Origin: a bacterium UBP10_UBA1149
GTDB lineage: Bacteria > Desulfobacterota > Binatia > UBA1149
Length of the DNA stretch: 45,679 nt
Reading direction: 5' to 3'
NCBI GenBank assembly: GCA_002311335.1
Contig: DBZX01000055.1
Span: forward strand, 1-45,679
Part shown: in pieces, positions 8,613 through 40,438 of the stretch
Numbering within the stretch: the stretch's first letter is position 1
Layout of the letters: every line of letters begins with the position of its first letter
The notes under the pieces: model-generated
Database searches by the model: none
Told to the model about the DNA's origin: nothing
What the model saw: the letters and a program-made list of their open reading frames with translations, nothing else
Program-made: the position numbers and the translations under genes

Positions 8613-9674
8613 ATGTCCAACGGATACGGATCACCATTTGGAAACGGCGGCGGTAAGAGGCCCCCGACACCCGAGGAACTGCTGGCCCTGCTGGTGGCCA
8701 AGCTGCGGGGACGCTTCGGCGGCGCGCTGGGACTGGCCGGACTTGGCTTGGTGCTGGCCCTGTGGCTCGCCACCGGCGTGTACCAGGTCAACCCAAGCGA
8801 GGCAGGTGTAGTGCTTCGTTTCGGCAAGGTGACCGCCACCACCGGGCCGGGTCTCCACTGGCACTTTCCGTGGCCCGTAGAGACGGTTCTCAAGCCGCCG
8901 GTGACGGTGGTGCTCAAGGAAGAAGTGGGCTTCAGGACGATAGACGTGGGGCCCCCGGCGCGTTATCGGCAGGTGACCGAAGAATCCCGTATGCTCACGT
9001 CGGACGGTAACATCGTGGATCTCGATTTCATCATCCAGTACCGCATAAAGGATCCCAAGGCCTTCCTCTTCAATGTCCGCGACCCGTCCGAAACGCTTCG
9101 CGACTCGGCCGAATCGGCCATGCGTGAGGTGGTGGGGCGCAACACCATCAACAAGGCCCTTACAGAGGGGCGGCTGGAGGTACAGACCGAGGCCCAGGTG
9201 ATTCTGCAGGCCATGCTCGACCGCTACCAGGTGGGCCTGCATGTGGTCACCGTCAAGCTGCAGGACGTGGTTCCACCCGACCCGGTGCAGGACGCGTTCA
9301 AGGACGTGATCAACGCCGAGCAGGACAAGGAACGCATGATCAACGAGGCCGAGGGCTTTGCCAACGACGTGCTTCCCCGCGCCAGGGGCGATGCCGCGCA
9401 GCTGCTCAACCAGGCGCGTGGCTACTCGGAGTCGGTGGTTAAAGAAGCCGAAGGCCAGGCCGAGCGCTTCGATCTGCTCTACGACGCTTATCGTCGATCT
9501 CCAGTTGTTACGCGCAAGCGCTTGTACCTTGAAACCCTCGAAGAGGTGTTCGCCGATGTCAACATGATCATCATCGACGAGAAAATCGCGCGCGGCGCTC
9601 TTCCGCTGTTGCCGCTTGCCGGCGTGACCGGCTCCGGTGGCGCGGGCAGCAGGTCGGCCGAGGTGCCCCGGTGA
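8613..9674 (+). CDS. hflK: FtsH protease modulator HflK (SPFH/band-7)
   Basis: Gly-rich N-terminal tail (MSNGYGSPFGNGGGKRPP), one TM segment, then an SPFH domain (GVVLRFGK...GLHWHFPWP...NIVDLDFIIQYRIKDP) and a coiled-coil C-terminus. It lies directly upstream of hflC and overlaps it. Confidence 0.9.
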   Translation: MSNGYGSPFGNGGGKRPPTPEELLALLVAKLRGRFGGALGLAGLGLVLALWLATGVYQVNPSEAGVVLRFGKVTATTGPGLHWHFPWPVETVLKPPVTVVLKEEVGFRTIDVGPPARYRQVTEESRMLTSDGNIVDLDFIIQYRIKDPKAFLFNVRDPSETLRDSAESAMREVVGRNTINKALTEGRLEVQTEAQVILQAMLDRYQVGLHVVTVKLQDVVPPDPVQDAFKDVINAEQDKERMINEAEGFANDVLPRARGDAAQLLNQARGYSESVVKEAEGQAERFDLLYDAYRRSPVVTRKRLYLETLEEVFADVNMIIIDEKIARGALPLLPLAGVTGSGGAGSRSAEVPR

Positions 9675-10546
9675 ACCGCCTGACGGCAGCCGTGGTGGCC
9701 GTGGTGGCCGCGATAGCTCTTGTTTACGCGGGCACGTGCTTCAGCGTTGGCGAGTGGCAGCAGGCGATAGTGCTCAAGTTCGGTAAGCCCATGCGCACGA
9801 TAGTGGAACCCGGGCTGAACTTTCGTATACCCTTTGTCCACCAGGTGGTCTACTTCGACAAGAGACTGATGGAGTACGACGCCGCGCCGCGCGAGTTAAT
9901 AACCCGCGACAAGCAACAGCTGGTGGTAGACAACTTTTCGCGCTGGAAGATCATAGACCCGCTCAAGTTCTACCAGACCGTTATCAACGAGGCCGGGGCG
10001 CAGTCGCGTCTCGACGACATCATTTACTCCAACCTGCGCGAGGCAATCGGACAGGTGACCAGTACCGACGTGGTATCGGGCGATCGAACGAAGTTCATGG
10101 ACCAGGTCAGGTCGAATTCTGATCGTAGGGCGGCCGAGTACGGCATCAAGGTAGTCGATGTCCGTATCAAGCGAACCGACCTGCCCGAAAAGAACGAGCA
10201 GAACGTTTTTCGTCGCATGCGCACCGAGCGTGAGAGGCTGGCCAAGAAGTTTCGCGCCGAGGGAGACGAGGCATCGTCCAAGATCAGGTCGCAGGCCGAG
10301 CGCGAGAAGCGGGTTATCATGGCCGACGCGAACCGCGAATCGGAGATCATCCGCGGCAAGGCCGACGCCTTGGCCACCGACGTGTACGCCAAGGCATATG
10401 GCCGTGACGCCGAGTTCTACGGCTTTATCCGCACGCTGGAATCCTGGCGTAAAACCCTGGGAGAACAGACCACCGTGGTGCTGACCCCCTCGTCTGAGTT
10501 CCTGGAACTTCTCGTTTCCTCCCGCGCCTCGTCGCGAAAACGCTGA
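9671..10546 (+). CDS. hflC: FtsH protease modulator HflC (SPFH/band-7)
   Basis: The GTG start overlaps the hflK stop (GTGA). N-terminal TM segment, SPFH core (QAIVLKFGKP...PGLNFRIPFVHQVVYFDKR), then VVDVRIKRTDLP and a Glu/Arg-rich helix. Confidence 0.9.
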   Translation: MNRLTAAVVAVVAAIALVYAGTCFSVGEWQQAIVLKFGKPMRTIVEPGLNFRIPFVHQVVYFDKRLMEYDAAPRELITRDKQQLVVDNFSRWKIIDPLKFYQTVINEAGAQSRLDDIIYSNLREAIGQVTSTDVVSGDRTKFMDQVRSNSDRRAAEYGIKVVDVRIKRTDLPEKNEQNVFRRMRTERERLAKKFRAEGDEASSKIRSQAEREKRVIMADANRESEIIRGKADALATDVYAKAYGRDAEFYGFIRTLESWRKTLGEQTTVVLTPSSEFLELLVSSRASSRKR

Positions 10547-10684
10547 GCTTTCTTTTGTTATGCCCCCCCACAGGGGGTAGTCGCAAAATATACCCTTGAT
10601 GTAGTTGCGCGCGCCGTAGTATCTATGAGAGATACTGTACCCGGTTGCCGCGGTCGGGCGCGCTCCCACTGGAAGCTCACTGCC

Positions 10685-13195
10685 ATGAACAAAGACCAGT
10701 TCCTCGGCTTTTCTCGATCAGCTATTTGTGCTGGCCCGTTGCTTGTAGCCTTGGCCTGTCCCTTTTCGGCTGCTGCCGTCACAACCGCCGACCAGGTCTG
10801 CGCTCCCGCCGATGACCCCTGCGTCGTCAACTCGGTGGTGGTCGTTGACACCGGTGCGGTACTCGATTTTGGCCTGCGCACATTGCAGGTAACGGGCGGC
10901 GGTACACTGGACTTCGGCGGGTCGTCGGGCCAGGTAGTCTGCGGTCGGCTCGAACTCGACGCGGGCAACAACAGGGTGGATCTCAGGGGCGCTGGAGGCT
11001 TCGGGGGGTCAGTCGTGTTCCTGGTCAAGAAAGCCTGCAGTGCTGCTGCGAGCACTCCCTGCCTCAGCGATTTGGATTGCGCGCTGCTCGGGGCGGGTAG
11101 CTGCACCCTCGGTGACGGCAACGCGATCTTGAACGGCAAGGTCAGGGGAACGGTGGCTAACCCGGGATCGGTCAGCATAACGGCCGCGGCCGGCGTCTCG
11201 GTGGGCGACACGATAGACATGGACGGTACCAGCTCTGATTCTGACGGTGGGGACATCACGATTTCAGCCCTGGCTGGTCCGCTGATATTGGCGGCTGGTC
11301 TGCAGGCCACCGGCGGCGGCCTCGGCGGCGGCGGTGTCGTCTCGTTGTTTGGCGGACAGGATATTACAGTTAGCGCTGAAATAGATGTCGCCGGAGGAGA
11401 CTTCGACGGTGGCATTATAGAAATCGACGCCATGGGCGACATTGACTTGAACGCCCCGTTGTCGGCCAACGCGACTGGCGGCGAAGGCTTTGGTGGAGAG
11501 ATTTTAGTGACGGCCGCTGGCAACATCGACATAAGCGGTGGCAGCCAGGCCAACCGTATGATCTTCAGTACTGACGGAAACGGGGCCAACGGCGTGGGTG
11601 GTGACGGGGGTGAACAGGTCTACGACGCCGGCGGAACGCTGCACGTTTCGCCCTACGTAAAGTTGAGAGCCAACGGTGCTCTTCCCGACGGCTTCGGTGG
11701 TGATTTTTCGCTGGACGCCAACGGCAGTATCAACATAGAGGGTACGGTTGAATCAGTGGCCAAGGGTAGCCAGGGCGCCGGCGGGATCGTGGACATCACC
11801 TCGTTCAGCGGCGACATCCTCCTGGCCTCGGATTCGATGGTCGACTTAACTGGCGGATCGGCGGCGGGCGGGGACCTGTTTATAACAGCCTCGGGCCTGC
11901 TGGTCCTTGACGGTGACGTGGACGCTTCGGCTTCAAATGGTGGCGTGGCTGGATCCGTGGGCGCGGTGGCGGGAAGCGACCTGCTGGTGAGCGGCAGCAT
12001 TCTGACCTCGGGTGCCTCTCTGGGAGGCATATTCGGGGCTATCAGTCTCGAGGGCTGCCAGGTCCAACTGCTCTCGACGGCCGTCATCGATAACCAGGGC
12101 AACCTGGGGAAAAACATCCTCACCGGGCATGGATCGGTGAGCACGCTGGCGGGCAGTTCGATCAGCGCTGATCCGAGCGGCGAAAACAGGGCGAGGTACC
12201 GACTCGCGGCCGTACCACCGTCGCTCGCCGGCAGTCATTCGCCGGCCATCGTTACAGAACTGGTGCCGACTCTTTCGCCATGTGGGGATTGCGGCAACGG
12301 CGTAACCGATCCTGGCGAGATGTGTGATGACGGCAACCTGGTCGACGGTGATGGTTGCAGCGCGACCTGCATAGACGAGGGCTGCATAGCCGCTACGCCG
12401 GGCTATCCGGCCGTATCACTGTGTGACGACGGTGTTGGTTGTACGGTGGATTCCTGCGATGCGCAGGCCCACGTGTGTGTCAACGTGATCAGTTGCGACG
12501 ACGGAATAGCCTGCACCGTGGACAGCTGTGTCGCCGATACCTGCGCCAACCTGCCCGACGCCAACTTGTGCGGCGACGGCAACGACTGCACGGTGGATTC
12601 CTGCAGCGCGCTGACCGGTTGTGACAATTCCCCGGAAGCCGACGGGGTTTCCTGCGGCACGTCTTCTGATTTCTGCAGTCCCTCGGGCCAGTGCTCGTCT
12701 GGTAACTGCGAGGTGCTGTCGCCGACTCTCACCGGTCGCAGCCAGGTCAAGGTAAGCCTGAAGCCCGGTGTGGACACCGACAAGCTGCTGATCAAGGCCG
12801 ATCTCGCGTTGGCCGACTTTACCGTTCTCCCCAGCGACACCGGCCTGACCAGTTGGCTGGGAGACAACAACGGTTCGGAGATATGGACCGCGTCTATTCC
12901 CTCCTCTGCCTTTGAGAACAGGAGGGACGTCAAGTTCAAGTTCAAGGATAAGACCGGAGCCAACGGCGGCATAACCAAGGCCTCGGTTTCGATAATCACC
13001 AAGAGGGGGATAGCCCGGGTCAAGCTCAAAGTCGGTGGCAAATCCGGCGGTGTTGATCTCAATGCCGCTGCCGGACAGGCCCTGCTCACGGCAAGCCTCC
13101 TGTTTGGTGCCGACGTGATGAGTGGCGAGTGCCTGACAACTCCCACCGTGGTGTGCAAGGTCACGGCCCGTGCCGTGAAATGCAAGAGTAACTAG
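10685..13195 (+). CDS. large secreted protein: Gly-rich beta-helix-like repeats, cysteine-rich repeats and a Lys-rich C-terminal domain
   Basis: I moved the start to ATG 10685 (MNKDQFLGFSRSAICAGPLLVALACPFSAAAV, a signal peptide). About 500 aa follow with irregular G-G..I.I...G.I repeats (GGDITISA, GGEILVTAAGNIDISGG, AGGIVDITSFSGDILL), suggesting a parallel beta-helix. Next come CGDCGNGVTDPGEMCDDGNLVDGDGCSATC (Myxococcus-type Cys repeat) and three C.DG..CTVDSC units. The tail is Lys-rich with 3 Cys. Confidence 0.8.
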   Translation: MNKDQFLGFSRSAICAGPLLVALACPFSAAAVTTADQVCAPADDPCVVNSVVVVDTGAVLDFGLRTLQVTGGGTLDFGGSSGQVVCGRLELDAGNNRVDLRGAGGFGGSVVFLVKKACSAAASTPCLSDLDCALLGAGSCTLGDGNAILNGKVRGTVANPGSVSITAAAGVSVGDTIDMDGTSSDSDGGDITISALAGPLILAAGLQATGGGLGGGGVVSLFGGQDITVSAEIDVAGGDFDGGIIEIDAMGDIDLNAPLSANATGGEGFGGEILVTAAGNIDISGGSQANRMIFSTDGNGANGVGGDGGEQVYDAGGTLHVSPYVKLRANGALPDGFGGDFSLDANGSINIEGTVESVAKGSQGAGGIVDITSFSGDILLASDSMVDLTGGSAAGGDLFITASGLLVLDGDVDASASNGGVAGSVGAVAGSDLLVSGSILTSGASLGGIFGAISLEGCQVQLLSTAVIDNQGNLGKNILTGHGSVSTLAGSSISADPSGENRARYRLAAVPPSLAGSHSPAIVTELVPTLSPCGDCGNGVTDPGEMCDDGNLVDGDGCSATCIDEGCIAATPGYPAVSLCDDGVGCTVDSCDAQAHVCVNVISCDDGIACTVDSCVADTCANLPDANLCGDGNDCTVDSCSALTGCDNSPEADGVSCGTSSDFCSPSGQCSSGNCEVLSPTLTGRSQVKVSLKPGVDTDKLLIKADLALADFTVLPSDTGLTSWLGDNNGSEIWTASIPSSAFENRRDVKFKFKDKTGANGGITKASVSIITKRGIARVKLKVGGKSGGVDLNAAAGQALLTASLLFGADVMSGECLTTPTVVCKVTARAVKCKSN

Positions 13196-13206: not shown

Positions 13207-13443
13207 GTGAACCAGATTTTTGGACTTCTGCTCTGCCTCGTTTCCTGCATTGTGCTGTGGGCGACCCCCTTGTTCGCGGCTGCCCTCGTGCTGGCTGCCA
13301 CCGAGGCCTCGTTGTTCGGTCTTGGCCTGGCGCGGTCGATGGCGGGGCGGGAGCCGCTGCGCCTGTTGATAGCAGCCGGTCACGTGGTGACGGTGTTGGC
13401 GGGATTCCTGCTCTTCAGCGGCCTGGCGATTATTTTTTCCTGA
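13207..13443 (+). CDS. small hydrophobic membrane protein (2-3 TM), unknown function
   Basis: 78 aa with a GTG start 12 nt after the preceding stop. Almost entirely hydrophobic (LLLCLVSCIVLWATPLFAAALVLAA..., VVTVLAGFLLFSGLAIIFS). Coding status rests only on hydrophobicity and position. Confidence 0.45.
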   Translation: MNQIFGLLLCLVSCIVLWATPLFAAALVLAATEASLFGLGLARSMAGREPLRLLIAAGHVVTVLAGFLLFSGLAIIFS

Positions 13444-13465: not shown

Positions 13466-13537
13466 GCTTCACGGCAATCGGCGGTCGTTGCTTGTCTGTC
13501 CGCCCGCGATTGCTAAGCTCCGACGGCGGAGGAAAAA

Positions 13538-13891
13538 ATGGCCAAGGTTACCGTTTATCACAACCCTTCTTGAGGAAAATCGCGTGGAGTGCTGAATGTA
13601 CTCCAGGAGCGAGGCGTCGAGTTCGACGTTGTAGAGTATCTCAAAGCGCCCCTCGATCGCGAGACGCTGTCCGGACTGGTAGAGCTGGTCGGGGGTGACC
13701 CCGTGCAGATGGTCAGGACTTCCGACCGCAGGTTCAAGGACGGCGACTTGTCGTTGGCCCCGGACGCGGGCCTGCCCGAGGTCGTGGACCTGCTGCTGGA
13801 CGAGCCCGCTGTCATGCAACGCCCGGTGGTAGTGTCTGGGAAGAGGGCTGTTATAGCTCGACCCTCGGACAGGGTGCTGGAGCTACTGTGA
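13538..13891 (+). CDS. arsC: glutaredoxin-type arsenate reductase ArsC with in-frame TGA (13571-13573) at the catalytic Cys12 position; probable selenocysteine-containing protein
   Basis: ATG 13538 follows GGAGGA (13528-13533). Translation is MAKVTVYHNPS-[TGA]-GKSRGVLNVLQERGVEFDVVEYLKAP...QRPVVVSGKRAVIARPSDRVLELL. It is collinear with E. coli R773 ArsC (MSNITIYHNPACGTSR...NRPIVV...CRPSEVVLDIL, recalled from memory). The TGA is codon 12, the position of Cys12. The track ORF 13589..13891 is the same frame downstream of the TGA. Confidence 0.7.
13585..13605 (+). promoter_or_regulatory. SECIS-like mRNA hairpin downstream of the arsC TGA
   Basis: UGGAGUGC (13585-13592) pairs with GUACUCCA (13598-13605), giving 8 bp including one G.U, with apical loop UGAAU. 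The hairpin begins after an 11-nt spacer from the TGA. Confidence 0.5.
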
Positions 13892-15938: not shown

Positions 15939-16020
15939 CGGCAGGCAGTACCCTGGGGCAGCCCGCCGCGGTGCAGGCCCGGGACTGGTCGGGATGCGCG
16001 CAGGGGAAGGATATACAGGC

Positions 16021-19000
16021 ATGACAATCAGCAATAGAGTTTTGACGATGACCCTGGCCGCACTGGCTGTTTCGGCCTGGATGACACTGGTCCCGGCAAG
16101 CTCCCAGGCACAGGGCAAGGCGGAGCTTCACTGCCAGAAAGGGCTGGGCCGTTCCACCGCGCGCTACTACAGCGGGGCTTCGCGGGCCAGGCAGGCCTGC
16201 GTAGCGCGCATAGCAGCCGGCTCGCTCTCGCCGGTGACCGACTGCATAAGTGGAGAAGGCGATGACGTCACGGCCCTGCAAGTGCGCAGGGCCAAGGCCC
16301 GGCTGGCCTCTCGCATATCGCGACAGTGCTTCGGCGTAGACCTTATTTCGCTTAACTTTCCCGGCACCTGCCCCTTTGATGGCGACAAGCCCTGGACCAA
16401 CATCGACCTGGGCAATTGCATCGACGCCAAGCTCGACGCCGTCGTCGAGTCGACCCTGGCTGTGCAGTTTCCACAGATCGGTGCCGCCCTGGAAGGAGCC
16501 GATCTACAGTGTGTTCAGAAGGCGGGCCGCAAGGGCTCAGCCATGGCGGCGCGTACCCTGAAGGCGAGAACCCGTTGCCAGTCACGTCTGGACAGGGGGA
16601 TCATCCCCGCTGGCGTGGAGTGCATGGCGGGTATTCCTCCCTACGGCAACGGCACAGGTGACAGGACTACCGACAACAACATTGAAGCAGCCTACATAAG
16701 GTTGCTGGCCGGTGTGCCCGAAGTGTGTGCGTCGGCCGACGTCGATGCGCTGGGCTTCTCCGCTGCCTGCGACGATCCTACCGGCGGGCGGTTCAATATT
16801 TTTGATCTCAAGTCGTGCCAGTTCAACACTCATCGGGACGCGGTAGAGGACCTGCTCGAAGCTTCTTATCCCAACGCACCCGTCTGCGGCAACGACATCC
16901 ACGAGTACGGCGAGGACTGCGATGACGGCAACCTGGTCAATACCGACGCTTGCCTGGATACCTGCGTGGAGGCTTCCTGTGGCGACGGCGAGGTAGAGGC
17001 CGGTGTCGAGGAGTGCGATGACAGCAACTCGATCGACACCGACAGCTGCCGTAACTCTTGCGTGCTGGCGCGCTGCGGAGACTCGGTGGTGCAGTCCGGG
17101 GTCGAGCAGTGCGACGACGGCAATGTCTCGAACAACGACGACTGCCTCGATACCTGCCTGTCGGCGCGATGCGGCGACGGTTTTTTCTGGGCAGGAGTGG
17201 AAGACTGCGACGACGGTGGCGAATCGATCGTCTGTGACTCCGATTGCACGGTGGCGCTGTGCGGTGACGGCACCATAAACTCGACCCGGGGTGAGACCTG
17301 CGACAACGGTGCGGCCAACTCAGACACCTTTCCCAACGCTTGTCGGAGTAACTGTCAGCCGGCCGCTTGCGGCGACGCGGTGATCGATACCGGCGAGCTC
17401 TGCGATGACGGCAACGTCGTCAATGGCGACGGCTGCTCGGACTTGTGTGCTTTTGAGGCGATCTGCGGCGACGGCGTGACGGAGTTCGAAGAAGAATGTG
17501 ACGACAGTAACGTGGCCAACGGCGACGGTTGCAGCGATGCTTGCCTGCTCGAGTTCTGCGGCGACGGCTTGGTCAACAACTCTGGTAGCGAGCAGTGCGA
17601 CGACGGTAATTCCAGCAGCGGCGACGGCTGCTCTGCCAGCTGCGTGGTCGAGTTCTGTGGCGACGGTTCGGTCAACAACTCTGGCAGCGAGCAGTGCGAC
17701 GACGGTAATCTTTCCGTGGGCGACGGCTGCGACGAGAACTGTGTTGTCGAGGTCTGCGGCAACGGAGTGTTGCAGGCAGGAGAAGCCTGCGACGACGGTG
17801 GAGAGTCGGCTGCCTGCGATATCGACTGTACGGTGGCCGAGTGCGGCGACGATACGCTCAATACGTCTGCGGGTGAGCAGTGCGATGACGGCGCGGCCAA
17901 CTCTGACGTCCAGGTCGACGCCTGCCGTACAGACTGCGTGCTGGCGGGTTGCGGTGACCTGGTCGTCGACAGCGGCGAACAGTGTGATGACGGTGCGGCC
18001 AACTCCGATACCCGGGCAGACGCCTGCCGACTTTCCTGCGAGCTGCCCGGCTGCGGTGACCAGGTCACCGACACGGGCGAGGTGTGTGACGACGGTGGTG
18101 AATCTGCGGCCTGCGACGATGACTGCACGGTGGCCGAGTGCGGTGACTCGACCATCAACGTTTCTGCGGGCGAAGACTGCGACGACGGCAACACCAATCC
18201 CAGGGATAACTGTAACGGCGAATGCCAGCAGGCCACCTGCGGCGACGGTGTGGCCTGTACCGAGCCCGGTTGTACCACCGGCCCGGGGGGTGGCCTGGAA
18301 GAATGTGACCTCGACACGGATTGCTGCCAGGGCTGCGCTATCGTAGCCACCGGCTGTCAGCACCCGCTGTGCCCCGACGCCGGCAAATTACAGGTGTGGG
18401 CGGGCGTGGGCCGCGATTGTACGGTGGACGAAGACTGCCCGGCCGGTCTTTGTGACGGCGGGCTCGGGCGCTGCCGGACGGGGACGATGCTCGATACCGG
18501 CACAACCGGTATTGCCCATGACTCAGACGTCAACGACAACACCACCGCCCGCGGCAGCGTGCTGTGCGAGGGCCCCATTGACATGCTTCTCGCCGATACC
18601 GGCGGCTGCGGTGAGTGCGAACTTGCCGGTCTCGACCCGGTGACGGGCAGCTGCCGTTGCGCGAATGACCGGCGGCAGATCTGCGACAGCCCCTTCCAGC
18701 CGGACGCGGACTGCGGCGTTGACACGAATGGTGACCCTAACACCTGCCAGTGCTTTCTCGCGCCGCCGTTTCCCCTGTCTTCGGGCGGAATCGCGGTCTG
18801 CGTGCTCAGTCGTTTTACCCAGGATCTCGTGGGCACGGCCAACGTGGATACCGGCGAGTTGAAGACCGATGCCAGCCTGCGCGTAGAGGTTTACCTCGGG
18901 CTTGACCAGTTCAACCCTTGCCCGACCTGTGACGGTGATACCGTGTATGCCGATGGCGTGCGCGATGGCGTATGCAGCTTCGGTAACAACCTGGGACAAT

Positions 19001-19809
19001 CCTGCGACGCCACGGCTATAAACCACACCTTTCCTTTCGTGAGGCGTAGTTGCAGCGTTTCGGGTGGTGCCTGCGAGAAGAACACCGACTGCCCGGCAGG
19101 CGAGAGTTGCGATAGCAGCATTGCCGACGTGCCTGGCGGCGAGTACAGCCTCGATTGCTTGCCGGCGACCGGTAAGAACGTATCGGGACAGGGATTGCCG
19201 ATTGCGTTCACCCTGACCGCCGGCACGCAGGTGCTCGAGGCAGGGGTCAACTGCCCGTTCCCCTTCACCGCGAGTCAGTGTCACTGCCTGGTGTGCAACG
19301 GAGACACCTCGGTGCCCTGTTCCTCGAACGAAGAGTGCGCTTCCCTTGGCGCCGGCTCTTGTTCGGTGACCGGAAGCGGGGTGATGAATGGTCCCAACCC
19401 CTGCATTTCGTTCGGTAAGGTCTGCACGGCAACCGAGAACAACGAGGCCGAGTGCCCGGGCGTGGTCGAGACCTACTGCGACGGTTTCGTGCGCGCAACG
19501 GGGGAGGGCTACATCACCTGTGCTTCGGACGCCGACTGCGGCTTCGGCTTGTTGAGCGCGGGCAACTGCACGCTGAGCAAAACCCGCGAGTGTTTCATGG
19601 ACAGCGTACAGGCCGATGGCCTGGCGGTAGCCGGGGCCCCGCTATTGGCGTCGGTGTTCTGCGTTGCGCCTGTTTCGTCAGCGGGAGTGAACGCAGCAGC
19701 CGGTCTGCCGGGACCCGGGCGCGTGTTGCAGCAGATCACGTCGACCCTGTTCTGCGCCAACGATCATTCAAGGGTTTACACGCCGGGAGATCCCTCGAGC
19801 TGCGAGTAG
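16021..19809 (+). CDS. very large secreted cysteine-rich repeat protein (Myxococcus-type CGDG...CDDGN repeats)
   Basis: Start moved to ATG 16021 (GGAAGGA upstream), giving MTISNRVLTMTLAALAVSAWMTLVPASSQAQG (signal peptide). An N-terminal module of about 280 aa is helical-looking with spaced Cys. About 14 tandem 30-40-aa units of consensus CGDG.v..geeCDDGN....DgC...C follow. The C-terminal region of about 500 aa is Cys-rich and unrecognised. Antisense ORFs here (16866..17336, 17320..18363, 17355..18350, 18523..19284) are shadows. Confidence 0.85.
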   Translation: MTISNRVLTMTLAALAVSAWMTLVPASSQAQGKAELHCQKGLGRSTARYYSGASRARQACVARIAAGSLSPVTDCISGEGDDVTALQVRRAKARLASRISRQCFGVDLISLNFPGTCPFDGDKPWTNIDLGNCIDAKLDAVVESTLAVQFPQIGAALEGADLQCVQKAGRKGSAMAARTLKARTRCQSRLDRGIIPAGVECMAGIPPYGNGTGDRTTDNNIEAAYIRLLAGVPEVCASADVDALGFSAACDDPTGGRFNIFDLKSCQFNTHRDAVEDLLEASYPNAPVCGNDIHEYGEDCDDGNLVNTDACLDTCVEASCGDGEVEAGVEECDDSNSIDTDSCRNSCVLARCGDSVVQSGVEQCDDGNVSNNDDCLDTCLSARCGDGFFWAGVEDCDDGGESIVCDSDCTVALCGDGTINSTRGETCDNGAANSDTFPNACRSNCQPAACGDAVIDTGELCDDGNVVNGDGCSDLCAFEAICGDGVTEFEEECDDSNVANGDGCSDACLLEFCGDGLVNNSGSEQCDDGNSSSGDGCSASCVVEFCGDGSVNNSGSEQCDDGNLSVGDGCDENCVVEVCGNGVLQAGEACDDGGESAACDIDCTVAECGDDTLNTSAGEQCDDGAANSDVQVDACRTDCVLAGCGDLVVDSGEQCDDGAANSDTRADACRLSCELPGCGDQVTDTGEVCDDGGESAACDDDCTVAECGDSTINVSAGEDCDDGNTNPRDNCNGECQQATCGDGVACTEPGCTTGPGGGLEECDLDTDCCQGCAIVATGCQHPLCPDAGKLQVWAGVGRDCTVDEDCPAGLCDGGLGRCRTGTMLDTGTTGIAHDSDVNDNTTARGSVLCEGPIDMLLADTGGCGECELAGLDPVTGSCRCANDRRQICDSPFQPDADCGVDTNGDPNTCQCFLAPPFPLSSGGIAVCVLSRFTQDLVGTANVDTGELKTDASLRVEVYLGLDQFNPCPTCDGDTVYADGVRDGVCSFGNNLGQSCDATAINHTFPFVRRSCSVSGGACEKNTDCPAGESCDSSIADVPGGEYSLDCLPATGKNVSGQGLPIAFTLTAGTQVLEAGVNCPFPFTASQCHCLVCNGDTSVPCSSNEECASLGAGSCSVTGSGVMNGPNPCISFGKVCTATENNEAECPGVVETYCDGFVRATGEGYITCASDADCGFGLLSAGNCTLSKTRECFMDSVQADGLAVAGAPLLASVFCVAPVSSAGVNAAAGLPGPGRVLQQITSTLFCANDHSRVYTPGDPSSCE
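16885..18240 (+). repeat. tandem array of coding cysteine-rich repeats (about 90-120 bp units), including a near-identical 99-bp pair at 17551-17649 and 17650-17748
   Basis: The periodic motif TGCGGCGACGG...GAGCAGTGCGACGACGG recurs throughout. By hand alignment, units 17551-17649 and 17650-17748 differ at 4 of their first 60 nt. Confidence 0.8.
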
Positions 19810-32475: not shown

Positions 32476-35400
32476 TCAGCTGCAGCTGCCGTCGGCGAGG
32501 TTGTTGTCGAACTGGTCGCAGTCGTACGCCATGTTGTCGATTACATTGAGCTCCTGACAGGTTTCGCACAGCGTTACTTCGACCGCGCAGTCTGCCGCCG
32601 CTGTCCCGTCCGGGCTGGTCGAGCAACTTCCGGGCAGCGTCTGCGACACGTCAACCGAAGCGCAGGTCTTTGTCATTTTACTGGATGTCTTGTCTCGGGC
32701 CCTGGCCAGTTTACCCGAGGAGTCCGTCGCCAGGACATCAAAACAGCCGGCCAGTTGTGCGCTACCCGTGAAACTTCCGGCCTTAAGTCCCGACTTCTTG
32801 CAGGCCTGGAACAGCTTGTGAACTGAGAACGACAGCTTGCTTGCCGAGAATTGCACGGTGGCCTGGCAGCGCGCGCCGTCGCGGTTTTCGGCCGTGGTAA
32901 GCGCTGCCGACGACAGGTCATTGCCGAGTAACCCGGCGACCAACGACAGTTCTCCGTCCTCCGCGCCGTCGCCGGCGGTCGTGGCGTCTGTGAAACCAAA
33001 CGAGGGAGGCGACTGGCACTTGCTCAGCACGGTGTCACTCAGCTTCTGGCGGGCCTTGGCAACCTTGCCCTTGGGGTCGGTCGTGATGCAGGCCTGGGCG
33101 CCCGCGGTGTCGCCCTTGGCGGCCGCTTTCATACAGCCCTTCACGAGCTTGCCACGGGCCTTGGCGACCTTGGACGCAGCCTTGTTGACCAATACTATGC
33201 AGGCCTGCTGGGCCTTGTCTGGAGCCACCTCGGTGGCACATTCGTCCGAACACCCGTCACCGGGGGTGTTGTTACCGTCATCACAGCTTTCCACTCCCTG
33301 CTCGATGTAGCCGTCGCCGCAGAAAGCCCCCAGGCAGTTAGCAGTGCAGGCGTCGGTGTTACTTGAGTTGCCATCGTCGCACTGCTCGCCACTGTCCTGC
33401 ACGCTGTCGCCACAGAAAGGGTTGCTGCAATCGGTCCGGCACGCGTCGGGAGTGCTGTTTGAGTTGGCGGGGCCGTTGTCGCATTCCTCGACGCCTGCCT
33501 GTACGAAGCTGTCGCCGCAGGTCGCGTCCAGGCAGGTAGACGGGCAGGCATCGGTGTCGTCCAGGTTGCCGTCGTCGCACTGTTCGCCGGCAGTGGGGTT
33601 GACCGCCTGGTCGCCACAGGTCGCCGCGGTGCAATCGGCGTCGCAGGTGGCCGACTCGCCGCTGTCGTCGCAGTCCTCGCCCGGGTCGGTCACGCCGTTA
33701 CCGCACGAGGAGGTAACCTCGGTAACCACGGTCTGGCTGCCGCTCTGCCCTTCGTTTGAACTTCCCTGGCCGCTTGCGCTGAGTGAAACCTCGGTCGCTA
33801 TCTCGACGTTGTCCAGGTACCAGCCTGTACCGGGTATGCTGCTGTCGCTGCCCATGCGCCAGCGCAACAGCACCTGCTCGCCCGCCCAGGCCGACAGGTC
33901 AACGCTGGTCTGCAGGTAACCGCCGCCGTTTCCTGTGAAGGCCTGCCGTCCGCCCAGGGGATTGCTGCAACAGGTGTTAAGGCTGGAGTTGTAGCCGTTG
34001 GCCGTCATCGCCGACCCTAGATCGCTCCAGCTGCTACCGCCGTCATCGCTTATCTCGACGACACCGCCGTCGTAGCCGTTCTCGGTGTTATAGTCGTGCC
34101 AGAAGGTAAGCGTCGGGGTGCCGGCCACGGCGATGGGCGAGGCTGTGCGGACCCACAGGTCGCTTTCGATGTCCGGGTCAGGGGCAAACCACGACTGGCC
34201 CGAGCCGCTGCCAGGATCGAAGCAGGTGGGAGAAGACAGGTCGGGTGTGACAAGGGTGAGGCCCTCGATGCTGCTGATTATTATGGTTCCGCTGGCGAAG
34301 AACGGGTACACGTTCCACGCCCCCGCGAACCCCACGGCGTCGCTGGCCGGGTAGATGTCGAAGGACGCGACCTCGCACAGGTTGCCGTTGGCGATGTCGG
34401 AAAGGTCGATGATTCGCAGGCCGGTGGTGTAATTCGATTCGTAGGCGTAGCCGTTCTTGATGTACAGGTTGTGGTCGATGCTGGGCAGGTGCGACGTGTA
34501 ACTCGCGCCGAAAACAGGTGCGTCCAGGTCGCTTACGTCCACGATGTAGGTGCGCGTGTTGTGTCCGCCATACGCTTCGTCAAGCTCATCGTTGAGAAGC
34601 ACGTAAGCGTGGTCCTCGGTGAGCCATCCCTGGTGGGTGTAGGTTACGCCGCTGTAACCCGTTCGCGAGACCTGCACCGGGCTGCTCTTGTCCTCCACGT
34701 CAACGATGGTGAGCGTGTTCTCGTTGAAGGCGAAGCAGATCTCCCGGCCGCTGTAGGCCGAATCCGGTCCGGCGTAGACGACGCACTGCACGTCGTGGGT
34801 GTAGCCGTCGCCCGAGTAGCAGCCAGCCTGAACGGGCGAGGCGGGCGACGACAAGTCTATCATGTGCAGCCCGGCCGAGCAGGTGCCACTGCCCACCACG
34901 TATGCAAAGCCGGTGTCCTCGTTGATCGCTATGTTGTGGGCGTTGCCGAAGTTGGGGTAGTGGGCGGTCTCGCTGAAAGTGACGGGTGGCGATGCCACCG
35001 AACGCAAGCCGGTGAGATCGAACACCTGCATGCCGTGTCCGGAGGCTTCGGAGACGATGTAGACGTGGTCGGCGTAGACCTTCATGTCGCGCCAGTCGCT
35101 TGCAACACCGTTGTGTGCTGGCAGGTCACCCAGGTAGACCGGCGCGGCCGGGTCGGTGACGTCAAGGAACGAGGTGCCAGTGGAGCGGCCGGCTATGGCG
35201 TACTCGCTCCCGGTGGTGCTATCGGTCCAGCCCCAGCTGTCGTTACCGTCTCCCCCGCCTATGGCCGACATGGGGAAGAACTGCTCAAGATCTACCGAGT
35301 TACACGAAAACACGTCGGCCTTGTCGTCGATGCAGGCCGTGGCACCCACCGTGGTCGTAGGCACCGAGTTACGCGACCCCTTTCCGCCGAAAGGATTGCT

Positions 35401-37449
35401 TCCGCTCAGGCTCCAGTCAGCACTTCCAAGGTCATGGCCAGCCACCCACGCTCCACCGCCCGATTCCATGTCGTCCGAAAACGCTACCTGCGTACCCGAG
35501 CCCGGGCCCACCAGTACCTGGTAGCTGCGCTGGGCCTGTGCCCCGGCCGCCAGCGAGAAGGTCGCCCAGCTCACCGTGCCGCCCGATTCCGAGCCGCCGT
35601 CACTGGCCGAGCCGGCGATATAGCTAGAGCCCGAAGGCACGGTGGCCGACAGGGTCACACCTGTAAGGCCCGATCCGCCGGTGTTGGTGGCCGTTACGGT
35701 GTAGGTCAGGGCTGAGCCGGCAAACGCGGGGTCGTCGGAGGGTACTATGCCGACAGACAGGGTTGACGGCGGGGTACATGCAGCACCGCTCAATATCCCG
35801 CGGTCACAGAACGCCGTCCGGATAGTCGCGTCGTCCAACCCGGAGTAGAGGTTGACGTTTGCCTGCAGCAGGGCCAGTGCCGCGTCCGTCATCGTTGCGT
35901 TACACGGTACCGAGAAGTGGTGCTCCAGCACCAGCGTGTCGGCCTTGGTCGCGCCAAGTGCCAGCCTTATGTCCCACAGGGCGCGCGACCAGATTTCTCC
36001 GTCTGCGTGTACTGAGCCCACCAGGTCTCCGGGGTAGGTCTTGTTGCCGTCAACGCGCCTGAGGCAGGCTGGGTTTCCCGAGCCAAAGGAGGTGGCGTCC
36101 CAGTCGCCCACGCAGGCCGCGTGCGAAGCCTGGTAGGTGGCGTCGCCTTCGGGCAGGTAGAAACTGGCGGCCAGGTAGTCGCCGAAGCCCTCGCCCATGG
36201 CGCCCATATCCCCGCCACCCCAGCAGGCATTCTGGTCGTGCTGGACGGCGTGCCCGTACTCGTGGGCAACGATATCGGCGTCCTCTCCGTCGTCGACACC
36301 GCCGTCACCGAAGTGCACGGCGTCGTCGCCAGTGGAGTAGTAGGACTGGTCGTCAGCAAACCAGTGGGCGTTGGCCAGCGTTGGAAAGTCTCGAATGCCG
36401 TTGGCCGGTGGCGTGTCGTCGTCAAAGCCGAGCGAATGGAACCAACGCTGCAGTGAGTCGATGGAGTGGTAGATGGTTACTTCTTCGAAACGATCGTCGT
36501 CGCGATCATAGTTATAGACACGGCTGGGTTCGTCGGCCACGGTCACAACGAGACCTCCAGTCAGCGTGAGATCGACGTATTCTCCTTTGATACGGCCGGT
36601 TCCCGCGTCCAGCCCCAGCAGCGTAACCGCGCTTCGCTGGGCGTCCAGGGTTGCGCTGGTCAAGTCCGAATTGTCGGTGAGACCGGTGTTTCCCGACGTT
36701 TGCACCGGGTTAGGCAGGAAGACCAGGCCGCTGCCGGTGTCAAAGGCAATGCGGTTTTCCTGGAACAGTATCTTGCCGGTGACACCGTCGACAACGGTGA
36801 GAAAATCTCCCAGCGGTTCGGCCGCCCAGATCCACAGCTCGTGTGCCACCCTGAGAGTGCCGTCGGCGGCTGCGAACCACACCAGCCGGTGGTCGTGACG
36901 CATGCGTTTGACCGTCACGCCTGCCGCCGTAAGCGCCGCGCGCCGGGCGGCGGCGCGACGAACCCTTGGTCGCCTGGGCTTGCTTATCGGCGCGACGCTG
37001 TAGTTTGTGTGCAGGGCCTGCACCTCCCCTGAAGGCCCCTGGTGCACCGACAGCCACGCGTTGAACACCGGCCTTCGATTTACGGTCTGTTCAAAACGGG
37101 TATGGGCGCTGGCCAGTCCGCGCTTGATCTGCACAGTCCTGAGACCGGCCACGCCCTCGGCGTCCATTTTCAGCGCGAACGAGTATTGCTCGAGGAAGTC
37201 GCGCGCGGTCTGTTCGGGGGTATCAAGGGATCCACTGGCAGAGCAGGTCCGGTAGCTTCGGCGCTGGGTCATGTCGATGGTCTTGGCGTTGGGTTGCAGC
37301 AGGCAGGGAAGCCGTAGCGAATCTTCGGGGTGACGGCCGGTGTCACCCGCGATCAGTTGGGCAGGTGACGGGGCTACCGCGACCGAGCTGAGGGCCAGTG
37401 TAGCCATGGCCAGGAAGGCCAGGGGACGGGCGGTAAAAAACCTTTTCAA
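32476..37449 (-). CDS. giant secreted mosaic protein: propeptide, M36-like (HEYGH) zinc metalloprotease, CARDB/DUF11-like domain, jelly-roll domain interrupted by an LVIVD (choice-of-anchor-B-like) beta-propeller, cysteine-rich repeats, Cys/Lys-rich helical tail
   Basis: TTG start 37449 (AGGAAAAG 4 nt upstream). Signal peptide MKRFFTARPLAFLAMATLALSSVAVAPSPAQ. FTP/PepSY-like propeptide: ARDFLEQYSFALKMD...HTRFEQTVNRRPVFNA. Zinc site: DIVAHEYGHAVQHD...GEGFGDYLAASF...HADGEIWSRALWD. DUF11-like segment: LTYTVTATNTGGSGLTGVTL. Propeller segment: DSWGWTDSTTGSEYAIAGRSTGTSFLDVTDPAAPV...VYIVSE...MQVFDL. Cys repeats run from CGNGVTDPGEDCDDSG... to ...DGCSDEC (about 33238-33705). Confidence 0.85.
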   Translation of the reverse strand: MKRFFTARPLAFLAMATLALSSVAVAPSPAQLIAGDTGRHPEDSLRLPCLLQPNAKTIDMTQRRSYRTCSASGSLDTPEQTARDFLEQYSFALKMDAEGVAGLRTVQIKRGLASAHTRFEQTVNRRPVFNAWLSVHQGPSGEVQALHTNYSVAPISKPRRPRVRRAAARRAALTAAGVTVKRMRHDHRLVWFAAADGTLRVAHELWIWAAEPLGDFLTVVDGVTGKILFQENRIAFDTGSGLVFLPNPVQTSGNTGLTDNSDLTSATLDAQRSAVTLLGLDAGTGRIKGEYVDLTLTGGLVVTVADEPSRVYNYDRDDDRFEEVTIYHSIDSLQRWFHSLGFDDDTPPANGIRDFPTLANAHWFADDQSYYSTGDDAVHFGDGGVDDGEDADIVAHEYGHAVQHDQNACWGGGDMGAMGEGFGDYLAASFYLPEGDATYQASHAACVGDWDATSFGSGNPACLRRVDGNKTYPGDLVGSVHADGEIWSRALWDIRLALGATKADTLVLEHHFSVPCNATMTDAALALLQANVNLYSGLDDATIRTAFCDRGILSGAACTPPSTLSVGIVPSDDPAFAGSALTYTVTATNTGGSGLTGVTLSATVPSGSSYIAGSASDGGSESGGTVSWATFSLAAGAQAQRSYQVLVGPGSGTQVAFSDDMESGGGAWVAGHDLGSADWSLSGSNPFGGKGSRNSVPTTTVGATACIDDKADVFSCNSVDLEQFFPMSAIGGGDGNDSWGWTDSTTGSEYAIAGRSTGTSFLDVTDPAAPVYLGDLPAHNGVASDWRDMKVYADHVYIVSEASGHGMQVFDLTGLRSVASPPVTFSETAHYPNFGNAHNIAINEDTGFAYVVGSGTCSAGLHMIDLSSPASPVQAGCYSGDGYTHDVQCVVYAGPDSAYSGREICFAFNENTLTIVDVEDKSSPVQVSRTGYSGVTYTHQGWLTEDHAYVLLNDELDEAYGGHNTRTYIVDVSDLDAPVFGASYTSHLPSIDHNLYIKNGYAYESNYTTGLRIIDLSDIANGNLCEVASFDIYPASDAVGFAGAWNVYPFFASGTIIISSIEGLTLVTPDLSSPTCFDPGSGSGQSWFAPDPDIESDLWVRTASPIAVAGTPTLTFWHDYNTENGYDGGVVEISDDGGSSWSDLGSAMTANGYNSSLNTCCSNPLGGRQAFTGNGGGYLQTSVDLSAWAGEQVLLRWRMGSDSSIPGTGWYLDNVEIATEVSLSASGQGSSNEGQSGSQTVVTEVTSSCGNGVTDPGEDCDDSGESATCDADCTAATCGDQAVNPTAGEQCDDGNLDDTDACPSTCLDATCGDSFVQAGVEECDNGPANSNSTPDACRTDCSNPFCGDSVQDSGEQCDDGNSSNTDACTANCLGAFCGDGYIEQGVESCDDGNNTPGDGCSDECATEVAPDKAQQACIVLVNKAASKVAKARGKLVKGCMKAAAKGDTAGAQACITTDPKGKVAKARQKLSDTVLSKCQSPPSFGFTDATTAGDGAEDGELSLVAGLLGNDLSSAALTTAENRDGARCQATVQFSASKLSFSVHKLFQACKKSGLKAGSFTGSAQLAGCFDVLATDSSGKLARARDKTSSKMTKTCASVDVSQTLPGSCSTSPDGTAAADCAVEVTLCETCQELNVIDNMAYDCDQFDNNLADGSCS

Positions 37450-40348: not shown

Positions 40349-40438
<90 letters not shown>

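Follow-up and report, generated by a model that had tools for sequence, protein, structure and literature searches.

The single-codon interruption in the arsC gene of the 45,679 nt stretch of DNA analysed here (the window) marks it as a previously mis-annotated member of a predicted selenoprotein family that has been known since 2005. The gene belongs to the ArsC family, its in-frame UGA coincides with the codon of the catalytic cysteine, and this UGA is very probably decoded as selenocysteine (Sec). The preliminary description of the locus had suggested an ArsC gene with a Cys-to-Sec replacement that had been overlooked by ORF calling, an interpretation now supported by the conservation of the TGA, by the cysteine found in homologous proteins and by the fit of the adjacent hairpin to models of the bacterial SECIS.

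In the mechanism that we propose, translation would begin at ATG 13538 and yield a single product of 117 residues. A hairpin within the coding sequence would recruit SelB and Sec-tRNA(Sec), with the UGA being decoded as selenocysteine, such that, in the motif YHNPS-U-GKSR, Sec12 would stand where R773 ArsC has its nucleophilic Cys12, the three oxyanion-binding arginines being kept. In R773 ArsC, arsenate bound by three arginines is attacked by the nucleophile of residue 12, and glutathione and glutaredoxin resolve the resulting adduct; by analogy, arsenate or a related oxyanion would be the target of the selenolate, which would be regenerated via glutathione and glutaredoxin. We infer that Sec is truly inserted at codon 12, and that the machinery for its incorporation is present in the organism.

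The reading frame and its product

The full coding sequence (CDS) opens with eleven codons encoding MAKVTVYHNPS, followed by the TGA at codon 12 and a further 105 codons that are open as far as the stop codon (Table 1). The mechanical list of ORFs includes only a 100 aa ORF with a GTG start, at 13589..13891. It had been claimed that this ORF is headless, with its upstream part missing, and that the true ATG follows a ribosome binding site; all the coordinates given for this arrangement hold, the frame being open to 13891, and the ATG is preceded by a GGAGG motif. A scan for promoter-like sites 5' of the gene found none, as did a scan for terminator-like sites between 13100 and 14700.

Table 1. 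Positions of the arsC gene, its signals and other features of the window
Feature	Position	Strand	Remarks
Second Band_7 gene	9671..10546	+	Stop TGA at 10544-46
Gene for 856 aa protein	10625..13195	+	No Pfam family
Gene for 78 aa protein	13207..13443	+	No Pfam family
Shine-Dalgarno GGAGG	13528..13532	+	5 nt before ATG 13538; kept in 10/10 aligned relatives
Full ArsC-family CDS	13538..13891	+	117 codons; predicted Sec at codon 12; stop TGA 13889-91
In-frame TGA, predicted selenocysteine codon	13571..13573	+	Motif U-G-K-S (UxxS); opposite catalytic Cys12
Predicted bacterial SECIS	13580..13612	+	From folding; upper stem-loop 13585-13605, lower stem 13580-83/13609-12
GTG taken as start of 100 aa product by gene callers	13589..13591	+	Within 5' arm of hairpin
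Gene for 1271 aa protein	15994..19809	+	DUF4215 repeats
Gene for 1657 aa protein	32476..37449	-	DUF4215 repeats; M36 fungalysin-type peptidase, DUF11, LVIVD and MAM-like domains
tRNA-Ser(GGA)	40349..40438	-	Only RNA gene found in the window

Profile searches and alignments were performed with the joined 117-residue protein, in which U was replaced by C. The product is a glutaredoxin-type protein of the ArsC family (PF03960/COG1393): it matches the Pfam ArsC family (PF03960) with an E value of 1.3e-11 and 45 bits, relative to a cut-off of 24, and its score of 101.3 bits over positions 1-114 of TIGR00014, 'arsenate reductase (glutaredoxin)', is just below the cut-off of 106.05. Cys-containing relatives within the same subfamily score 118.9, 116.6, 113.1 and 104.6 against this latter profile. 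Two other branches were considered and rejected: Spx/MgsR, on the basis of a TIGR01617 score of 48.1 (cut-off 75.05) and of the UxxS motif, in which the second cysteine is absent, and YffB, with a score of 23.4 for NF008107 (cut-off 121).

The best matches in the PDB are Grx-type ArsC proteins. The window protein aligns end to end with R773 ArsC (1i9d, 1j9b; residues 1-116), sharing the catalytic loop YHNPxCGxSR, and in the 1i9d alignment C12, R60, R94 and R107 lie opposite U12, R60, R95 and R108. Both the proposed position of the TGA, at Cys12, and the proposed retention of counterparts of Arg60, Arg94 and Arg107 are thereby confirmed. The two proteins differ in the Sec for Cys12 exchange, their identity is around 32%, and the window protein, being 117 aa long, has no C-terminal tail.

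Selenoproteins of this kind have been described before. The 2005 Sargasso Sea selenoproteome introduced 'Arsenate reductase, UxxS' as a family, on the basis of 14 sequences with a predicted SECIS (PMC1088965), and the 2008 analysis of the GOS data listed 'ArsC 1, pfam03960, UxxS' with 77 Sec sequences, as opposed to 784 Cys homologues (PMC2398784). A 2026 review lists the UxxS ArsC under TIGR00014, below an 'Experimentally verified' heading and with MBT3519430.1 as the representative, whilst stating that nearly all such families were identified bioinformatically and remain uncharacterised (PMC13188914); in a database paper of the same year, the worked example is a search with an ArsC-like query (PMC13326102). 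The statement in the preliminary description that ArsC selenoproteins were known from computational surveys only was correct (PMC1088965, PMC2398784, PMC13188914). Judged by its sequence, the window gene qualifies in every respect as a member of the UxxS ArsC selenoprotein family: it has in common with it the fold family, the replacement of the N-terminal catalytic Cys by Sec, the UxxS motif, and a stem-loop 3' of the UGA with a G in its small apical loop, and in both cases Cys homologues far outnumber the Sec forms. The differences, namely that the window member comes from a non-marine lineage and that the public entries are shortened to 100 aa, include nothing essential.

The hairpin downstream of the TGA

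Folding of the sequence 3' of the TGA gives an upper stem-loop, UGGAGUGC-UGAAU-GUACUCCA, and a lower stem, in which UCGC pairs with GCGA, that lengthens the hairpin. The preliminary description had noted a SECIS-like hairpin 11 nt downstream of the TGA, and had compared this distance to that of the minimal E. coli fdhF SECIS. The fold confirms the position of the hairpin, and the spacing measured from the TGA to the upper stem-loop is indeed 11 nt, the same as that which Liu et al. reportedly described in 1998 for the minimal 17 nt fdhF element. The two elements are also alike in lying within the CDS and in having a G in the apical loop. However, the window hairpin has an 8 bp stem and no bulged U, and its loop is UGAAU rather than GGUC; the rules by which SelB recognises its targets vary between species. 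The stem is kept in close relatives, the loop of which is UGGAU, corresponding to the commoner G[G/U] form; the UGAAU of the window is without this commonest dinucleotide.

The complete hairpin has a folding energy of -17.0 kcal/mol, against -7.6 +/- 2.2 kcal/mol for dinucleotide shuffles (z = -4.3), with none of 200 shuffles being as stable. Relative to 5000 synonymous recodings using the codon usage of the window, the real sequence lies in the most stable 4.8%, which is a marginal result. According to the consensus published for bacterial SECIS elements, the apical loop has 3-9 nt with a G at one of its first two positions, the upper stem has 4-16 bp, the UGA and the loop are 16-37 nt apart, and the minimum free energy (MFE) is no higher than -7.5 kcal/mol (PMC13188914). 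With a 5 nt loop, a G at position 2, an 8 bp stem and a 19 nt spacing, the window hairpin agrees with all four structural constraints, and its MFE amounts to -11.5 kcal/mol if only the core is considered and to -17 kcal/mol when extended. The hairpin shows no compensatory substitutions within the clade, and the most distant relative (L011) drops the top one or two pairs; a permissive Rfam scan of 13500-13700 returned only matches at the level expected by chance.

ArsC genes with the TGA (TGA forms) were also compared with a control set of 105 genes from metagenomes that share the motif but have cysteine (Cys forms), the GC content of the two sets being equal (0.63 vs 0.62). Over the interval from +7 to +51, the mean folding energy was -16.9 kcal/mol for 100 TGA forms and -12.5 kcal/mol for the Cys forms (Mann-Whitney p = 3e-13, a value that is only indicative, as the sets come from separate subfamilies and lack phylogenetic independence). 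The strict SECIS model was satisfied by the MFE structure of 40 of the 100 TGA forms, but by only 12 of the 105 Cys forms. A single consensus SECIS was not obtained for the TGA forms outside the Acidimicrobiia, including that of the window, and the registers of the hairpins vary between lineages. The 44 loci with the Acidimicrobiia-type gene have the hairpin CCUUGGC-GGUC-GCCGAGG at 20-37 nt past the TGA; its GGUC loop, which begins 23 nt after the UGA, is the same apical loop as that of E. coli fdhF, and one pair of its stem is GC in 33 cases, AU in five and GU in two, as a consequence of paired synonymous changes.

The components needed for Sec incorporation were sought in the available DNA. 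Neither ARAGORN nor Rfam detected a tRNA-Sec in the 45.7 kb of the window, and Pfam annotation of all its long ORFs revealed no SelA, SelB or SelD. When ARAGORN was applied to all the fetched loci, one tRNA-Sec was found, on an unrelated Cys-form contig, whilst a tblastn search of these loci with E. coli SelD and SelA gave no match, a weak negative obtained with unverified query sequences. The literature was also searched for reports of selenocysteine use in Binatota, with no relevant result. This lack of machinery genes in the window and fetched loci would also fit read-through of the UGA without Sec, whether through near-cognate insertion of Trp or Cys or through insertion of Cys by the Sec pathway when selenium is scarce. 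Nevertheless, such a scenario appears very unlikely: inefficient near-cognate read-through leaves unexplained why a SECIS-type hairpin is conserved at the canonical distance, why TGA forms are more structured than Cys forms and why the stop always falls on the redox-active residue, and a Trp at the position of the nucleophile would abolish the activity of the enzyme.

Conservation of the TGA and choice of start codon

The five nearest protein clusters (81-99% identity) have all been called as 100 aa proteins, whilst the more distant homologues, at 62% identity or less, are all around 117 aa in length and have a Cys at the aligned position, such that the comparison proposed in the preliminary description, using the joined sequence, does find Cys at the TGA column in the nearest full-length homologues. 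The ATG, the eleven codons and the TGA are kept in all 10 aligned sequences, which derive from independent assemblies and several samples, and the changes flanking the TGA in these relatives are synonymous only. The gene is also present in assembly GCA_963579235.1, on contig CAUZFM010000056.1. L011 differs from the window at 42 codons synonymously and at 18 non-synonymously, yet the TGA is kept; over codons 1-17 there are three synonymous and no non-synonymous changes, whereas the DNA 5' of the ATG diverges much more than the coding part. Hence the frame that runs through the TGA is under purifying selection. A reassigned genetic code is excluded, as TGA, the commonest stop in the window, terminates 16 of its 34 long ORFs as well as arsC itself. 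Each ORF of the window was also examined for a TGA lying upstream of it in the same frame and for an extension by read-through, and no convincing candidate for another selenoprotein gene was found.

The distribution of the TGA form was studied by scanning one genome per GTDB species for the pattern TAYCAYAAYCC-NNNN-TGAGG-NNNN-TCNMR, which gave at least 120 matches. These include at least 111 intact ArsC genes of around 116 codons, in other GTDB species, with the TGA at the same codon. Among the matches listed, a Met typically stands 11 codons ahead of the TGA, together with a beta-strand pattern that lay outside the search motif; the sources listed are metagenome-assembled genomes (MAGs) labelled as Acidimicrobiales, Candidatus Binatia, 'delta proteobacterium', Pseudomonadales and Verrucomicrobia-type, and the window's own species is absent from the matches listed.

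These data bear on whether the annotated 100 aa protein might itself be genuine, with translation starting at GTG 13589 and the upstream ATG...TGA being untranslated or a leader mini-ORF. That GTG is used by every gene caller and every database entry for the clade, and a GAGGA motif lies upstream of it. The public entries HIF62977.1, HIL14426.1, MEO2136149.1, MBC8291753.1 and NQY92043.1 are all shortened in this way, and the near-identical NCBI proteins, from Candidatus Binatota, Deltaproteobacteria or Pseudomonadota MAGs, are all annotated as a 100 aa 'arsenate reductase (glutaredoxin)'. The GAGGA is composed of the Sec codon and the codon that follows it (TGA GGA), and the presence of this Shine-Dalgarno-like sequence before an in-frame GTG is probably the reason for the uniformity of the gene calls. 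However, GAGGA, at 13572-76, is the nearest such sequence to the GTG and is 12 nt away from it, and the GTG itself is located inside the stem of the hairpin. Furthermore, the 100 aa product covers only positions 16-114 of the 114 in the ArsC profile, and would therefore be without the first beta-strand and the catalytic loop. The eleven upstream codons are conserved as protein, and the Met and beta-strand pattern recur in the TGA-form genes of other species. Consequently GTG 13589 is probably not a genuine start, and it is highly improbable that the 100 aa protein is the real product.

Effectively refuted is the possibility that the gene is a pseudogene, or that the TGA stands for a TGC or TGT misread in sequencing or assembly: a lone in-frame stop in an intact gene would also be expected from a fresh nonsense mutation or a miscalled base, but the TGA is identical across assemblies from many independent samples and assemblers, persists in a clade in which 60 codons differ, most of them synonymously, and occurs in more than 100 other species, and arsC is otherwise free of stops and frameshifts. 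The earlier view that the TGA reflects Cys-to-Sec replacement rather than decay therefore stands, with the TGA present in every relative examined.

Genomic context and possible role

The neighbours of arsC in the window are genes for two Band_7 proteins, two unknown proteins, a HAD hydrolase and a CoA transferase. The two proteins encoded directly upstream, of 856 aa and 78 aa, belong to no Pfam family, and their synteny is conserved in all the related contigs. The second Band_7 gene and the gene for the 856 aa protein share a frame, with 26 open codons between the TGA of the former and the latter, an adjacency that is probably due to chance. Elsewhere in the window, two large proteins, of 1271 aa and 1657 aa, both contain DUF4215 repeats, the longer one having several additional domains (Table 1).

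No ars genes were found near arsC in the window, so the context gives no support to a function in arsenate reduction. The same is true of the TGA forms in general: none of 100 TGA-form loci had an ars neighbour (ArsR, Acr3, ArsH, ArsB, MIP or LMW-PTP) within approximately 4 kb, whereas at least one was present at 60 of 105 R773-like Cys-form loci. The window gene thus differs from the R773-like loci in being without a nearby arsR, arsB, acr3 or arsH. All four Cys members of the window's own 117 aa subfamily are likewise stand-alone, and hence the stand-alone state characterises the subfamily as a whole and is not peculiar to the Sec forms.

That arsenate is the substrate of the Sec-containing ArsC is suggested by analogy with R773 ArsC, and the label 'arsenate reductase' may be wrong with regard to the physiological role of the window's subfamily. 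One tentative and rather doubtful idea is that the stand-alone subfamily (C/U-G-x-S-R-G-A-L...RAVIARPSE), whether with Sec or with Cys, acts as a housekeeping selenol or thiol reductase instead of an arsenic resistance enzyme, in which case its substrate may be another oxyanion or a glutathionylated target. Such a role, if real, would account for the absence of linkage to ars genes. The consistent separation of the Sec-bearing subfamily from ars operons is a mildly new point.

For the annotation of these genomes, the result is of value because NCBI and IMG list this gene and its near relatives as headless, 100-residue 'arsenate reductases' (for example HIF62977.1, MEO2136149.1 and MBC8291753.1), whilst the true product of the shortened entries is most likely a selenoprotein of 117 residues. 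It also indicates the use of selenocysteine in the source lineage, which is probably Binatota. An arsenate reductase in which Sec has replaced Cys would constitute a tidy system in which to study the benefit that selenium brings to the reduction of oxyanions, a question that has been recognised since 2005.
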